The notes under the pieces were generated by a model. That model was not told where the DNA came from. It worked only from the letters and a program-made list of their open reading frames with translations, and made no database searches. 64,000 nucleotides of DNA from a virus. Lineage: Duplodnaviria; Caudoviricetes. The DNA lies in the IMG/VR virus record IMGVR_UViG_2617271079_000001, positions 1-64,000 of that record; one strand, written 5' to 3'. Positions 48,102 to 53,098 of this stretch are shown in pieces (position 1 is the stretch's first letter; the number at the start of each line of letters is the position of its first letter). Both the position numbers and the translations under genes were made by a program.

Positions 48102-48193
48102 GCATAAAAGTGAGCTGCCGCGCATAAGTTGTTAACGTACAACGTGTTAGCAACTTTTTCAGACTCCCCCGGAGAAATCCAGGGGAGTTTTTT
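48102..48193 (+). ncRNA. putative ~60-nt sRNA unit (sigmaE/G-like promoter plus terminator)
   Basis: GCATAAA-N14-CATAAGTT at 48102-48130; strong hairpin with U-tract at 48163-48193; no ORF between. Confidence 0.45.
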
Positions 48194-48218
48194 ATTTGGG
48201 AAAATTTAATTGGGACCT

Positions 48219-48247
48219 GCATTCTTAGGTATGACCGGTCATACCAT
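48219..48247 (+). promoter_or_regulatory. sigmaE/G-like promoter overlapped by a perfect 18-bp palindrome
   Basis: GCATTCT-N14-CATACCAT; GGTATGACCGGTCATACC at 48228-48245. Confidence 0.55.
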
Positions 48248-48280
48248 TAAGTATAGCCAGATAACCAGGGAGGCGATTTG

Positions 48281-48583
48281 ATGAGTAACAAAAATAAAAT
48301 TATCAAATCTGTGTCGTTCAATGTGACTAACGAGGATGATAAAAAGATGCTGAAGCATTTGCTGAAGAGAAACTTCAGTGGTTATGTAAAAAAGTTGATC
48401 ATGAGAGAAATTGAATTAAAAGGTGAGAAAGAAGGAGCGGTTCCTGAATCTAGTGAGACAACGGTCCTGAAAGAAGAAAAGAAATTAACTGCAGCTGAAC
48501 GGCTTGAACAATTAAAAAAGGAGCGGATAGCCGCCCCGGAACGTATTACGTTGAAAGTCGATGGGAAGAATCAAGAATTTTAA
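48281..48583 (+). CDS. RHH-like DNA-binding protein, first gene of accessory operon
   Basis: IKSVSFNV strand then two helices (NFSGYVKKLI); RBS GGGAGG. Confidence 0.6.
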   Translation: MSNKNKIIKSVSFNVTNEDDKKMLKHLLKRNFSGYVKKLIMREIELKGEKEGAVPESSETTVLKEEKKLTAAERLEQLKKERIAAPERITLKVDGKNQEF

Positions 48584-48645
48584 CCAAGGAATGTATTCAC
48601 TGCAAGGCCGATGCCATATCCAACAATTAGCGCAGCAATAAACAT
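48580..48645 (-). CDS. unannotated 21-aa single-TM peptide
   Basis: RBS AAGGAAGTGA; MFIAALIVGYGIGLAVNTFLG*. Confidence 0.65.
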   Translation of the reverse strand: MFIAALIVGYGIGLAVNTFLG

Positions 48646-48674
48646 GTCATCACTTCCTTATGAATGATTGCCTA

Positions 48675-49561: not shown

Positions 49562-49616
49562 GAAAATACCTCCTTTTGGTTTATTGTACCAAAAGGTATA
49601 TAAAGGAGCAAGTCAT

Positions 49617-50321
49617 ATGAAATTCAGACTATCAAGTAAATATGGCGAACTGTCGGGGGTAAGGAATTGGGAGCCCCACCATGGCATTGACCTATCGATG
49701 CCAATCGACACCAAACTGAGATCTATAGGAGATGGAGTAATCGAGCAGGTTATCACCAATGGAAAAGAAATCGGTAACGCTGTTTTGATTAGGATGGATA
49801 ATGGAATGTTGGCCACCTACGGCCACCTTAACAAAGTAGAGGTTAATCCGGGCGAGCATATAAGTGCCGGCGATATTATCGGTCTTAGCGGTAATAGCGG
49901 GGGTATGACAACGGGGCCGCACCTTCATTTCTCTTTGCAAGACGCAGCTGGGGAGTATATTAACACAAATGGACTTGCAGAGGCGGTGGATAATTTGAGT
50001 GGGAATGGATTATATATACCTGTCGGCAACGTGCTGGATAGGATTAAAGAGAATGGAGCTATTAACCAGTACAGCGAATTAGCAAAAGGTGATAGCAATT
50101 GGTTTTTGGAATGGATTAATGGCCACGCTGAACACATGATGTCAGATGTCTGGACTTGGTTTATTCATGCACTACCAGATATTATCGGTTATACCACTAT
50201 AGGGGCCGGCATATTTATCATATTAGGCTCGATGATTGGTAAGGGCGGCATGATAAAACCTTTGGCATTTTGGAGCGGCTTGGTAATAGCAGCTATTTGC
50301 ATCTTGATGGGAGGGTCATAA
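49617..50321 (+). CDS. M23 (LytM) peptidase with C-terminal TM hairpin
   Basis: HHGIDL, YGHL, TGPHLHF intact; two C-terminal hydrophobic helices. Confidence 0.88.
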   Translation: MKFRLSSKYGELSGVRNWEPHHGIDLSMPIDTKLRSIGDGVIEQVITNGKEIGNAVLIRMDNGMLATYGHLNKVEVNPGEHISAGDIIGLSGNSGGMTTGPHLHFSLQDAAGEYINTNGLAEAVDNLSGNGLYIPVGNVLDRIKENGAINQYSELAKGDSNWFLEWINGHAEHMMSDVWTWFIHALPDIIGYTTIGAGIFIILGSMIGKGGMIKPLAFWSGLVIAAICILMGGS

Positions 50322-50322
50322 C

Positions 50323-50538
50323 ATGCAAGAGATCGCTAATGAATGTAAGAAGATAGCATTCGAGTCGGATGACAACATCTTAATTACCACAATAAAAATT
50401 ATACCTAGGGGATTTCAAAATATAGCAGAAACAATCGGATTCGACGGTTGCTCTGATGCACCAACCTTTTTTGAACACATGGTGAATTCAATAGAACCGG
50501 TCATTAGCTTTATATTGCTTTTCGTGGGAGGGATCTAG
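50323..50538 (+). CDS. small protein with hydrophobic C-terminus
   Basis: RBS GGGAGG; tightly coupled to both neighbours. Confidence 0.6.
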   Translation: MQEIANECKKIAFESDDNILITTIKIIPRGFQNIAETIGFDGCSDAPTFFEHMVNSIEPVISFILLFVGGI

Positions 50539-50539
50539 A

Positions 50540-53098
50540 ATGGATAACGCACCAATCGTTTGGCAAACAGAAAATGCTGGCGTTCCTGCTTTGTATAACG
50601 GAGGAATGCCAGCTGAATTTTCAGTCCGGGATGTAAAGGTTCCATGGTTTAAAAGGAAAGTCAAAAAGATAAAGTGGAACGATTTTTTTGAAGTGGAGAA
50701 AAACATGATGGTCGTTTACCGTATTATTCCTCATGTTGGGGTCACCAATAACAATAAACGGCTTTGGCGTTCTATTTACAAGATGTTTGAAATGTACAGT
50801 CGTGTTGGTTCCCGGCTGGAAAGGGACGGTTGGAAGTTCACCTATAGAGAGAAGGATTACTTTTGGTTTGAAGTCATCTTTAGACAAGTGAAAGGTGAAA
50901 AGAAAATTGAGTTCTATATTTCCACCTCAGAGTACCAGGCGATCAAACTGAAAAGAAAAATCGAAAACAAGATGGCTGTTACATTCAAAGAGGCGTCACT
51001 CGAAGACATCCAGATACCGACTGAAAATACCATAGTGCAAGAAATGAAATACTTAAAGCATGACATATTCTCTTTGAATACAAACAGTAACGAAAGCCAA
51101 ACTCCGATCGCCTCGATCATGAACACAGTTGATGAACTGCAGTTCGATGGCGATATCGCTCGACTAAGTATATGTGCTGAAGCTGAGAATCGTCAGAAAT
51201 GGGTTAAAAATGCTCAGTGGGCCATGGAGAAGTTGCAGAAGGGGAAAGTGCCTCAGCGGGCAAATATAAGCGGTAAGCAAGTGAACAAAGCGATAAAAAT
51301 AGGTATCGTAGGGACTATAAACGAAATCAATGATCTGTTGGTCGACACGTTCCAGGCGATGAGTAATGTTTTCTTTAAATCAGAAAAAGAATTCAAGAAG
51401 GATAAGGTGATTGAGAAAGGCTACAGCTTAGAAGATGAAATTTCTTCAACAAGGTTGAGTAATGCAAGCAGAGACAAAATGAACTTACCTGTGTTTAAAA
51501 CTCGTATCCGGGTGGCAGCTCATTCAACTGATCGGCTTACCAGGGAGACTTTAGGGGAAACCCTTGCTCTCTCGATGAATGATGTGTCAGAAAACAATGA
51601 ACTTCACGGCATCAAAATTCGAGTGAATGGTCGCCGGATTAAAGCGATCAACGAAATGAATACATTAAGGCTTTCACGGAAAACAAGACTGGACGCTAAT
51701 GTCAATTTGGTTTCATCAGATGAAATGAGCAAGATTGCTTTGCAGATACCCGGAAGAGAACTTCAACAGCGATATTCTGATGAATTGAATACAAAGAAGC
51801 GAGTGGAAACAAGTGTGCCTGCAGTTCTTCAAAATCCGAATAATTTAATGCTGGGGGTTGCAGAGTTCAAAGATCAGGTCATACCGGTAGGACTGCAACC
51901 AAACGAAAAAGAGGAGTTTTATTGTGGGTATACCTTCATCGGCAAGCAGGGAGCAGGGAAGGATAACGCTATTCAAAACTTTGTTTATGAAGGAGCTATG
52001 AAACATGGGATTTCATTCGTAGTACCTGATTGGATATGTCAGCCTGGTCATAAAGGAATGGCTGACGGAATCAGGGACCTTCTGCCGCCGGATAAGGTCA
52101 TCGACTTGGACCTATCAAACGAGGAATGGATTATACCGATGGATCTAACAGAAGTAATCGAGAAGCTAGGAAGGAAAGGCGGGTCACGTTTTGCCTCGGA
52201 AATGATTGATTTCATGAATCTTGGCGGTCTTGCAAGGTCGGAAAAATATTTGACTGAAGCAGCCAAAGCTTCCAGAGGATCACTTCATAATATCAAGAGA
52301 ATCATTGAGGATGAGGAATACAGATTGAAACGAATTGAAGAATTAATGATTTTTGGTAATATGCGTCTAGCGAATGATTTGATTCAATGGGGGACAAATG
52401 ACGAACTAGGTGGAAAGGCAGATGCCATACTCAATCGATTAAATCAGTTCTTTGGAGATGATACCCTTTATGACATTTTTTCGCAGGGACCAAAGAAGGA
52501 AGTGGATTTTGAAAAGTGGATGAAAGAGGGGAAGACGATCATCATCCGGATGCCAAAGAGGAAATTAGGTCATTCAAGCAATACGTTGGCCCACTGGGTC
52601 ACGCTGAAGGTTCTGATGACAAGGATGCTTATGACAGAAGAAGATAAGGATCGCCATGGGTGTTTTATGTTGTTCAACGAGCCTGAGCAAGTGGAGTCGA
52701 AAGGATTGGCCCAGCTGATGGGTAGAATAGCGACAGAGGGAAGGAAAGAACGCCTGGGATCCATATTCGCATTCCACCATTGGGATAAACTACCGGACTA
52801 TCTCCAAGATAACTTAATTGCAGGCGGTGTGAATCAGTTCCTATTTGCAAACGACCATAAAAAGACCTTCGAGAAGGCGAAGGAACGGCTGTACCCGACT
52901 TTTACAGTTGAAGAGGCCCTGCAGACTCCCAAACATTATTCAATCGCCATATTAAACACCAAGGAGCCATTACATGCGTTCATGATTCATATGTCTCCAC
53001 CGGTCCCTGAAAATAAGAGGTATGATAACTCTTTTCTGACAAAAAGACATGCTCAGCTTTACGGTAGGTCCTGGCAAGATCTGCAGGGGATTATTTGA
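50540..53098 (+). CDS. HerA/FtsK/VirD4-superfamily P-loop ATPase
   Basis: GKQGAGKD (Walker A), MLFNEPEQ (Walker B variant), ATEGRK arginine-finger motif. Confidence 0.75.
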   Translation: MDNAPIVWQTENAGVPALYNGGMPAEFSVRDVKVPWFKRKVKKIKWNDFFEVEKNMMVVYRIIPHVGVTNNNKRLWRSIYKMFEMYSRVGSRLERDGWKFTYREKDYFWFEVIFRQVKGEKKIEFYISTSEYQAIKLKRKIENKMAVTFKEASLEDIQIPTENTIVQEMKYLKHDIFSLNTNSNESQTPIASIMNTVDELQFDGDIARLSICAEAENRQKWVKNAQWAMEKLQKGKVPQRANISGKQVNKAIKIGIVGTINEINDLLVDTFQAMSNVFFKSEKEFKKDKVIEKGYSLEDEISSTRLSNASRDKMNLPVFKTRIRVAAHSTDRLTRETLGETLALSMNDVSENNELHGIKIRVNGRRIKAINEMNTLRLSRKTRLDANVNLVSSDEMSKIALQIPGRELQQRYSDELNTKKRVETSVPAVLQNPNNLMLGVAEFKDQVIPVGLQPNEKEEFYCGYTFIGKQGAGKDNAIQNFVYEGAMKHGISFVVPDWICQPGHKGMADGIRDLLPPDKVIDLDLSNEEWIIPMDLTEVIEKLGRKGGSRFASEMIDFMNLGGLARSEKYLTEAAKASRGSLHNIKRIIEDEEYRLKRIEELMIFGNMRLANDLIQWGTNDELGGKADAILNRLNQFFGDDTLYDIFSQGPKKEVDFEKWMKEGKTIIIRMPKRKLGHSSNTLAHWVTLKVLMTRMLMTEEDKDRHGCFMLFNEPEQVESKGLAQLMGRIATEGRKERLGSIFAFHHWDKLPDYLQDNLIAGGVNQFLFANDHKKTFEKAKERLYPTFTVEEALQTPKHYSIAILNTKEPLHAFMIHMSPPVPENKRYDNSFLTKRHAQLYGRSWQDLQGII

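Follow-up and report, generated by a model that had tools for sequence, protein, structure and literature searches.

The SPP1 gene 31-32 cassette in a prophage: a predicted VirB4-like ATPase and conserved sporulation-promoter-like motifs

In type IV secretion systems, the gene order virB2-virB3-virB4 encodes a pilin, a small membrane protein and an ATPase. The SpoIIIA-SpoIIQ channel between the mother cell and the forespore of Bacillus subtilis combines a secretion-type ATPase and membrane proteins with a membrane partner made in the forespore and a protein of LytM/M23 fold. The closest described relative of the locus presented here is the cassette of genes 31, 31.1, 31.2 and 32 of phage SPP1. 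In the accessible part of their paper, Godinho et al. (2018) report that gp32 resembles TrwB, VirB4 and FtsK by HHpred and that gp31.1 and gp31.2 contain transmembrane segments, propose gp31.1, gp31.2 and gp32 as a possible "trans-membrane translocon" of unknown role, and describe genes 31.2 and 32 as dispensable (PMC6316719). No functional study of this cassette was found in our literature searches. Here, we analyze a stretch of 64,000 nucleotides (the window; positions 1 to 64,000 of the 93.7-kb IMG/VR record IMGVR_UViG_2617271079_000001), in which a prophage element at positions 48,102 to 53,098 is a copy of the SPP1 cassette. We propose that it encodes a sporulation-timed envelope device resembling type IV secretion, with forward genes read by sigmaE, a reverse peptide gene read by sigmaG or sigmaF and a transfer directed to the spore. 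This reading, built on sequence and analogy, we hold with as much belief as doubt.

The initial annotation of this DNA listed five open reading frames (ORFs) after the endolysin gene, all of which are present as listed (Table 1); two small minus-strand ORFs lie between the endolysin gene and the cassette. Four of the encoded proteins are homologous to the products of SPP1 genes 31, 31.1, 31.2 and 32, with tblastn identities of 45, 60, 51 and 58.5%, respectively, and each matches a PHROG family. The order of the four genes is kept, interrupted here by an antisense HNH gene, and a terminator-like hairpin stands upstream. Together, these data show that the element is a copy of the SPP1 gene 31/31.1/31.2/32 cassette with an HNH endonuclease gene inserted. 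What had been described as a candidate new system thus belongs to a cassette for which a translocon has already been proposed, as the accessible part of the SPP1 paper shows (PMC6316719). Nor is the operon tightly coupled throughout as first described, because the HNH gene splits the pilin-like gene from the M23 gene and only the M23 gene, the 71-codon ORF and the ATPase gene abut. SPP1 and the Geobacillus phage GBK2 share with the prophage the four homologous genes in the same order as well as the upstream layout of a promoter-like motif P1, an inverted repeat, a terminator and a second motif P2, and SPP1 also has the antisense peptide gene. In contrast to SPP1, which is lytic, the element carries an M23 peptidase at the N-terminus of its gp31.2-type hairpin and has the HNH gene and the 71-codon ORF in addition. 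Megablast of the region against the phage collection gave no match, and its relatives are detectable at the protein level only. Alternative starts exist for the first ORF (48278 or 48281, giving 100/101 amino acids) and for the second (48694 or 48724); for the latter, the 114-residue form is favoured since homologues start at the second ATG (48724).

Table 1. Features of the cassette and its upstream region in the window (aa, amino acids; nt, nucleotides; RBS, ribosome-binding site; RHH, ribbon-helix-helix).
Feature	Positions	Strand	Basis and remarks
Endolysin	46759-47655		Amidase_3, E 9.7e-29; upstream of the cassette
P1, sigmaE-type promoter-like motif	48102-48130	+	-35 block 48102-48108, 14-nt spacer, -10 block 48123-48130
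Inverted repeat	48126-48156	.	11-nt arms, 91% complementary; overlaps P1 -10 block
Terminator-like hairpin and T-run between P1 and P2	48163-48196	+	Inverted-repeat search and sequence reading; not listed by terminator scan
P2, weaker sigmaE-type promoter-like motif just 5' of the RHH-like gene	48219-48247	+	Homologous sites in 12 deduplicated loci
Perfect 18-bp palindrome, possible binding site (operator or centromere-like) of the RHH-like protein	48228-48245	.	Overlaps P2 spacer and -10 block
RHH-like (possibly ParR-like) small DNA-binding protein, SPP1 gene 31 family	48281-48583	+	phrog_17574, E 7.8e-21
Terminator-like hairpin after the peptide gene, within the RHH-like gene	48510-48537	-	7 pairs, 6 of them G-C, T-run
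Putative hydrophobic membrane peptide gene, 21 codons, unannotated	48580-48645	-	Strong RBS; tail-to-tail with the RHH-like gene, 4-nt overlap
Forespore-type (sigmaG/F-like) promoter-like motif for the peptide gene	48675-48704	-	-35 block 48704-48700, 18-nt spacer, -10 block 48681-48675
VirB2/TrbC-like membrane protein, 114 aa, SPP1 gene 31.1 family	48724-49068	+	phrog_5422, E 9.2e-26
HNH homing-type endonuclease, 160 aa, between the pilin-like and M23 genes	49079-49561	-	PF13392, E 4e-9; phrog_59, E 2.9e-27
M23 metallopeptidase (N-terminal) with gp31.2-type two-helix hairpin (~50034-50321), 245 aa	49584-50321	+	PF01551, E 1.7e-23; phrog_20592, E 1.3e-20
71-aa ORF, lineage-specific, putative gene	50323-50538	+	ORF call only
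Predicted VirB4-like ATPase, 852 aa, SPP1 gene 32 family	50540-53098	+	phrog_5156, E 3.9e-261

To follow the cassette across phages, 44 IMG/VR loci were seeded on the pilin-like protein and searched by tblastn. The RHH-like gene was found in 41 loci, with two of the misses at contig starts, and the hairpin and the ATPase in 37 each; six of the seven loci without ATPase end within ~1.2 kb. The cassette core is composed of the RHH-like, pilin-like, hairpin and ATPase genes. Since the M23 catalytic domain occurs in 15 loci versus 37 for the hairpin, the hairpin protein carries it as an optional N-terminal extension. The genes stay together in related loci and are not embedded in conjugative clusters, which agrees with their initial description as a unit. 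A tblastn search with the ATPase retrieved 105 phage records, of which 75 match over at least 80% of the query; the 105 include GBK2 (64% identity), 0105phi7-2 (61%), SPP1 gene 32 itself and, at 24-31%, the large myoviruses SP-10 and YungSlug. The related-locus search in genome contigs yielded only 3 loci.

The large protein had been annotated as a HerA/FtsK/VirD4-like ATPase. Its modeled fold, however, is VirB4-like and not VirD4/FtsK-like, because the matches of the N-terminal domain discriminate for TrwK/VirB4. The top Foldseek matches of the full-length model, which was built with an alignment of 41 relatives (predicted local distance difference test, pLDDT, 85.5), are TrwK/VirB4 of R388 (E 4e-13). 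When the N-terminal domain (residues 41-420) was folded alone (pLDDT 80.3), all 13 Foldseek matches at E<=1e-3 were TrwK/VirB4, and VIA-align against 48,161 chains placed TrwK/VirB4 at Z 15.7 (root-mean-square deviation 3.5, 251 residues aligned) with the next chain at Z 8.8. The C-terminal domain alone is non-discriminating, with Z values of 27.0 for VirB4 (4ag5), 26.2 for DndH-C, 25.7 for TrwB and 25.4 for HerA. At the sequence level, no Pfam or NCBIfam model matched the ATPase of the window, curated type IV secretion ATPase models stayed below threshold, and a single-sequence search of the PDB returned nothing. A profile of the family gave weak matches in the PDB to the FtsK/HerA superfamily only (TdpA at E 1e-4, DptH, DotL, HerA and TrwB); among the 41 relatives, one matches AAA_10 (E 0.0029) and one T4SS-DNA_transf (E 0.00064). 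The Walker motifs are non-canonical, GKD in Walker A (residues ~468-476) and N-E in Walker B (~709-715). Both occur together in 13 of the 41 aligned relatives, the others having GK[ST] with D-E, and the lysine and the glutamate are invariant. This covarying change looks like a swap at the metal site, compensated rather than decayed. The family comprises 400 representatives at E<=1e-3. A class-wide search with phrog_5156 reached 57 of 401 genomes at E<=1e-20, an unsorted set in which many matches cover the C-terminal domain only and may be conjugative VirB4 proteins. For phage BigBertha, a genome note records an "FtsK/SpoIIIE" protein to which it attaches no clear meaning (PMC3853046); this protein may or may not be a member of the gp32 family.

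The VirB2/TrbC pilin topology initially assigned to the 114-residue protein is borne out by the alignment of its relatives, by sub-threshold TrbC matches and by its Atlas model. The protein has 234 relatives and its mature part is very strongly conserved (~60-90% identity); the alignment displays a long signal-like N-terminus followed by two hydrophobic helices with a short basic loop between them. The TrbC profile PF04956 scores 15.4 bits on the protein of the window against a cut-off of 27.9 (E 0.023, profile positions 10-94 of 98), and matches below threshold are found in 20 of 25 relatives, with a best E of 1e-4. The Atlas model resembles T4SS_pilin clusters with TM-scores of 0.62 and 0.60, which serves as a lead only, and a PDB search with the family profile gave a chance match (E 1.2).

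The third conserved protein is, as first noted, an intact M23 peptidase with a C-terminal transmembrane hairpin. PF01551 scores 83 bits on the M23 domain with a cut-off of 28.7, the HxxxD and HxH motifs are present, and the two-helix hydrophobic hairpin can be read in the translation. The match to phrog_20592 covers residues 170-243, and the identity to SPP1 gene 31.2 extends over the C-terminal 88 residues. A basic loop joins the two helices of the hairpin, from which we infer, by the positive-inside rule, that the N-terminal M23 domain would lie outside the membrane.

The VirB2-VirB3-VirB4 core (R388 TrwL/TrwM/TrwK; PDB 7O42, 7O43, 8RTD) is the part of type IV secretion that the cassette most recalls: the gene order is the same, the ATPase model matches TrwK/VirB4 over both domains, the small protein has a TrbC/VirB2-like sequence and predicted fold, and a wall hydrolase is encoded alongside. 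In contrast to that core, the cassette is carried by a phage, its hairpin shows no VirB3 similarity in Pfam, its ATPase has the Walker motifs GKD and NE, and no VirB4-type Pfam model reaches threshold on this ATPase. The whole 93.7-kb record contains no match to relaxase (PF03432), coupling protein (PF02534) or TrbL/VirB6 (PF04610); VirB8 and VirB5 were not searched for. The initial impression that relaxase and VirB6 are absent holds for the entire record, and so does the picture of a minimal set in which a wall hydrolase and a large ATPase accompany a VirB2/TrbC-like protein. Such a set could also be what is left, decayed and functionless, of a conjugative type IV secretion cluster acquired by phages, given that VirB2-like and VirB4-like parts are all that it retains, that the Walker motifs deviate and that an HNH gene has been inserted. 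We find decay hardly credible, however: all reading frames are intact, the four genes keep their order in dozens of diverged phages, the conservation of the mature pilin-like protein and the size of the ATPase family speak for maintenance, and the covarying Walker changes suggest a compensated active site.

The first gene of the cassette was initially annotated as encoding an RHH-like protein. It belongs to a conserved family, as its presence in nearly all loci demonstrates, but the fold is unconfirmed and the label derives from a sequence pattern and the annotations of others. No Pfam or PDB match to the RHH fold was found, and the profile of the family gave ribosomal uL18 only in the PDB, at E of at least 1. 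Six of the 44 loci were inspected for an actin-like ALP_N gene, and in four of these such a gene (E 1e-19 to 1e-22) lies directly 5' of the RHH-like gene (L091, 4830-5648; L103, 4731-5561; L104, 4819-5643; L105, 4823-5641), so that the cassette begins with a parM-parR-like pair. In plasmids, type II partition loci have the organization parM-parR-parC, with parC repeats upstream of parR. The ALP_N gene before the RHH-like gene in the four loci, and the repeats and the palindrome 5' of the RHH-like gene, resemble this organization. Because of the parM-parR arrangement of the ALP_N-RHH pair, the RHH-like protein is suggested to be a ParR-like DNA adaptor. The prophage differs in that its cassette opens with the RHH-like gene alone, and no ALP_N gene was found in the 93.7-kb record.

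The region upstream of the RHH-like gene has a layout shared by many loci, consisting of P1, the inverted repeat, the terminator-like hairpin, P2 with the palindrome, and a ribosome-binding site. Sixteen diverged related loci, SPP1 and GBK2 among them, have P1 at the homologous place, and its spacer is 14 nt long in all of them; its two blocks have a mean information of 1.04 and 0.89 bits, compared to 0.57 bits in the spacer and 0.43 and 0.30 bits in the flanks. By eye, each related locus has its own version of the inverted repeat at P1, and at P2 a similar heptad is repeated in the related loci, directly or inverted, in two or three copies. RNAalifold on the 16 upstream regions found no common structure, and covariation in the inverted repeat was not shown. 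The SPP1 counterpart of the hairpin is a predicted Rho-independent terminator (24,095-24,136), another one follows gene 32, and genes 31-32 are hence bracketed by terminators with no promoter annotated between them in the table concerned (PMC6316719, Table 2). In the accessible text of the same paper, neither sporulation-type motifs nor the minus-strand peptide gene are mentioned, and the word 'sporulation' does not occur. The segment 48102-48196, with P1, inverted repeat and terminator, is a compact, ORF-free unit that accompanies the cassette, in SPP1 and GBK2 as well, and could yield a ~60-nt RNA or act as a regulated leader. A PyrR element was considered and rejected, as Rfam on 47600-48750 gave a sub-threshold match only (28.7 bits versus 54, E 0.13). 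A clade of the B. cereus group (L063-L075, L101, L002 and L043; ~52-kb records with RepA/ParA) deviates from this layout: the spacer of its motif 5' of the RHH-like gene is 15 nt long, the first base of the -10 block is A rather than C, and the P1/terminator unit is absent. The clade retains the antisense peptide gene with its heptamer.

To compare these motifs with host promoters, canonical sporulation genes were taken from 41 Bacillales genomes and scored with a matrix derived from 28 phage sites. In 23 of 25 genomes, the site that the phage matrix selects 5' of spoIVA (sigmaE) lies at -50 to -57 and has a 14-nt spacer; similar sites are selected for two further sigmaE genes, spoIID (-33/-34; 11 of 25) and spoIIID (-64 to -68; 10 of 24). 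Scores of at least the cut-off of 9.5 are reached by 21 of 25 spoIVA regions, 3 of 25 spoVT (sigmaG) regions and none of 14 spoIIR (sigmaF) regions. Several spoIVA sites have a -35 start and a -10 block identical to those of P1 in SPP1 and GBK2. Conversely, a matrix from 23 distinct host sites (spoIVA/spoIID/spoIIID) ranks P1 as the best site in the window (16.4; the host sites themselves have a median of 16.7) and gives 15.3 and 13.1 for P1 and P2 of SPP1, the two best sites in its 14.5-kb locus, and 15.3 and 11.9 for those of GBK2. The form of P1 agrees with published descriptions of sigmaE promoters, which in the accessible parts of the sources have an ATA -35 motif and a -10 box beginning with CATA that is shared with sigmaK (PMC3789822; PMC517825). 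The genes spoIIIAA, dpaA and spoIIM were unusable as controls (0 of 41 genomes at the thresholds used). The comparison thus supports P1 and P2 as having the form and 14-nt spacing of promoters of sigmaE genes. Of the sigmaE/G-like upstream motifs in the initial annotation, their presence, their conservation in related loci and their agreement with spoIVA, spoIID and spoIIID sites have held up, but single-match scores lie within chance. In the spoIVA upstream regions (L133-L157), a divergent sporulation promoter may exist on the antisense strand.

A comparable minus-strand peptide ORF is found in 36 of 40 distinct gaps between RHH-like and pilin-like genes, including SPP1, where the gene (17 amino acids) is unannotated in the record. 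An unbiased search for the heptamer most shared 5' of the peptide gene recovered one that 21 of 24 deduplicated loci contain with no more than one mismatch; it lies 35-47 nt ahead of the start codon, in most cases after GG. For the sigmaG-dependent spoVT, 22 of 25 Bacillales genomes have an exact copy of this heptamer upstream, separated by 18 nt from a preceding GCATA block, compared to one exact occurrence in 88 upstream regions of spoIID (0 of 25), spoIVA (0 of 25), spoIIID (1 of 24) and spoIIR (0 of 14). In the window, the heptamer deviates at one position, and the block 18 nt upstream of it reads GTATA. Judged by this sequence pattern, the antisense forespore-type motif is conserved and closest to a sigmaG-type promoter. 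The initial claim of a consensus sigmaF promoter firing antisense therefore stands as far as a conserved forespore-type motif is concerned, but its nearest likeness is to sigmaG, with the heptamer as in spoVT. A matrix from an automatic -35 finder was discarded as useless, having latched onto the complement of the start region of the pilin-like gene.

A short, hydrophobic and conserved peptide that is encoded tail-to-tail with the RHH-like gene and has its own promoter-like motif and terminator invites a different explanation. The cassette may be sporulation-timed but antagonistic or addictive, damaging, arresting or marking the sporulating cell rather than serving as a conduit. Either the M23 and membrane proteins would block engulfment, such that the host stays vegetative, or the peptide would be a killer like a type I toxin, opposed by the convergent transcript of the operon. 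The intact M23 domain suits this explanation and the promoter evidence is the same as for a conduit. We nevertheless consider it clearly improbable, as the conserved core is a VirB2-like and VirB4-like pair with an M23 domain that is optional, which suits an assembly machine better than a toxin, and the 21-residue peptide matches no family or toxin family in our searches.

In the spore-directed device that we favour instead, the forward genes would be read from the sigmaE-type, mother-cell promoters P1 and P2, and the reverse peptide gene from the sigmaG/F-type, forespore promoter, as suggested by the conserved motifs; the P2 palindrome is probably bound by the RHH-like protein. Host sporulation would turn the cassette on, in a prophage or a freshly infecting phage alike. 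By analogy with type IV secretion, the ATPase would dock on the membrane proteins and extract or assemble the pilin-like subunit, and the M23 domain, where present, would open the wall. The parts may form a small envelope-spanning device at the interface of mother cell and forespore. Most likely, it would serve to deliver RHH-bound phage DNA or a protein of the phage to the developing spore, either inside it or onto its surface, with both substrate and direction being guesses. The likeness to the SpoIIIA-SpoIIQ channel is in working principle only, i.e., a sigmaE-type operon with an ATPase and membrane proteins, a membrane partner from the forespore and an M23 fold. The systems are not homologous: the prophage M23 domain scores 27.6 bits on the SpoIIQ model NF053738, which has a cut-off of 250 bits. 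Moreover, the prophage M23 domain is catalytically intact by motif and encoded in the forward (mother-cell-type) operon, the prophage ATPase is VirB4-like in its predicted fold, and the putative forespore-type partner is a 21-residue peptide.

The distribution of the cassette fits a link with sporulation. Nearly all phage records with the ATPase (104 of 105) are named after endospore-forming genera, as the idea of a restriction to spore-formers implies: 93 after Bacillus, four after Geobacillus, two after Lysinibacillus, two as "Deep-sea" thermophile phages and one each after Alicyclobacillus, Terrisporobacter and Brevibacillus; the exception is one Microcystis record. Phages named after Staphylococcus, Streptococcus, Lactococcus and Listeria yielded no ATPase match among 50,697 records. 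The cassette is also present in virulent phages, such as SPP1 and a Herelleviridae phage, beside replication genes. Expression from the lysogen, as originally assumed, is at odds with this finding, and a sporulation role limited to lysogens is excluded.

Several observations weigh against the spore-directed reading. The restriction to phages of spore-formers may reflect descent only (phylogenetic inertia). No signal peptide precedes the M23 domain, and eight hairpin sequences showed no VirB3 similarity in Pfam at E<=5. Fifty of 200 shuffles of the window reached the P1 score of 16.4, so that the motif score alone is not above chance, and P2 of the window scores 7.8. The host sites behind the reverse matrix were picked with the phage matrix in fixed positional windows, making the comparison partly circular, and the phage matrix also gives high scores (median 8.8) on the antisense strand upstream of spoIVA. 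The terminator within ~60 nt after P1 implies that P1 may give a short RNA only. The -10 blocks overlap inverted repeats or heptads and could be conserved as protein-binding sites. Most members of the B. cereus-group clade of plasmid prophages, with their different -10 start, have host-matrix scores of at most ~6.8. In LY5, YungSlug and MMB025, the cassette lies among genes for replication or nucleotide metabolism, and SPP1 genes 31-32 are filed in the early PE5 unit and non-essential according to the accessible part of the source (PMC6316719).

The chance-level P1 score, the overlap of the -10 blocks with repeats, the poor scores of the B. cereus-group clade and these genomic positions would all be accommodated by a vegetative membrane translocon, as the SPP1 annotation implies, that acts early in the lytic cycle in the cytoplasmic membrane of growing cells, e.g., in superinfection exclusion, in helping DNA entry or exit, or in envelope remodeling before lysis. 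The 'sporulation' motifs would then be operator or centromere repeats with a chance resemblance to promoters. This is a possible account that we consider somewhat unlikely. A predicted terminator parts SPP1 gene 31 from the PE5 unit (accessible part of PMC6316719), and no sigma-70-type site was found 5' of the operon in a promoter scan of the window. In addition, the conserved blocks with fixed spacing match promoters of spoIVA, spoIID, spoIIID and spoVT, and the cassettes of the phage collection are, bar the Microcystis record, confined to phages of spore-formers.

A bolder form of the spore-directed reading is that of a two-compartment device, in which a sigmaE-driven VirB2/VirB4-like assembly made by the mother cell, equipped in some phages with the M23 enzyme, and the sigmaG/F-driven peptide of 21 residues from the forespore would bridge the septum and let phage DNA, carried by the ParR-like RHH protein, or a phage protein enter the spore, a dedicated 'virospore' route for virulent and temperate phages. 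Phage genomes trapped in Bacillus spores are termed 'virospores', and the aids known from the accessible part of the source are segregation functions of the host (PMC12991052); a dedicated phage machine for their formation was not found described in our literature searches. We regard this form as quite doubtful. Among the phages of Bacillus, SPP1 offers the best genetic model, and the cassette has had no function on record since its description there. If the promoters are compartment-specific, the lack of a vegetative phenotype in SPP1 would be explained. If the spore-directed device exists, it would be a stripped-down VirB2/VirB4 system working without VirB6, VirB8 and coupling protein, which bears on what a minimal type IV machine is. 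If the motifs are operators only, the element amounts to no more than a further, unremarkable example of a known phage cassette. The conserved sporulation-like control signals make the job of the cassette testable in B. subtilis with SPP1.

Two reading frames of the element lie outside the conserved core. The HNH gene has copies in 3 of the 44 related loci, once in the same place (L083, 6372-6848, minus strand; 60% identical) and twice 5' of the RHH-like gene on the plus strand, and looks like a mobile homing-type gene that moves within the cassette. Inside it, on the plus strand and 34 nt before the M23 start, the motif 49522-49550 has the second-best score of the phage-site matrix in the window (14.3; host matrix 11.1) and might restart transcription 3' of the HNH insertion, or be due to chance. 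The small protein of 71 residues with a hydrophobic tail in the initial annotation stands as an ORF but lacks conservation, with no family match and no tblastn match in any of the 44 related viral loci.

Downstream, a gene for a lipoprotein of 168 amino acids (53129-53635, minus strand), with a lipobox near the N-terminus, lies 3' of the ATPase gene and convergent to it; its only matches, weak and at the level of the signal peptide, are to exclusion lipoproteins of the Cor/Eex type (E 0.01-0.09). Further on, an ORF of 483 amino acids (54772-56223, minus strand) has, by reading only, an N-terminus like that of serine recombinases. From 54772 onward, the G+C content drops to ~30%, which together with this ORF marks the start of a second prophage.

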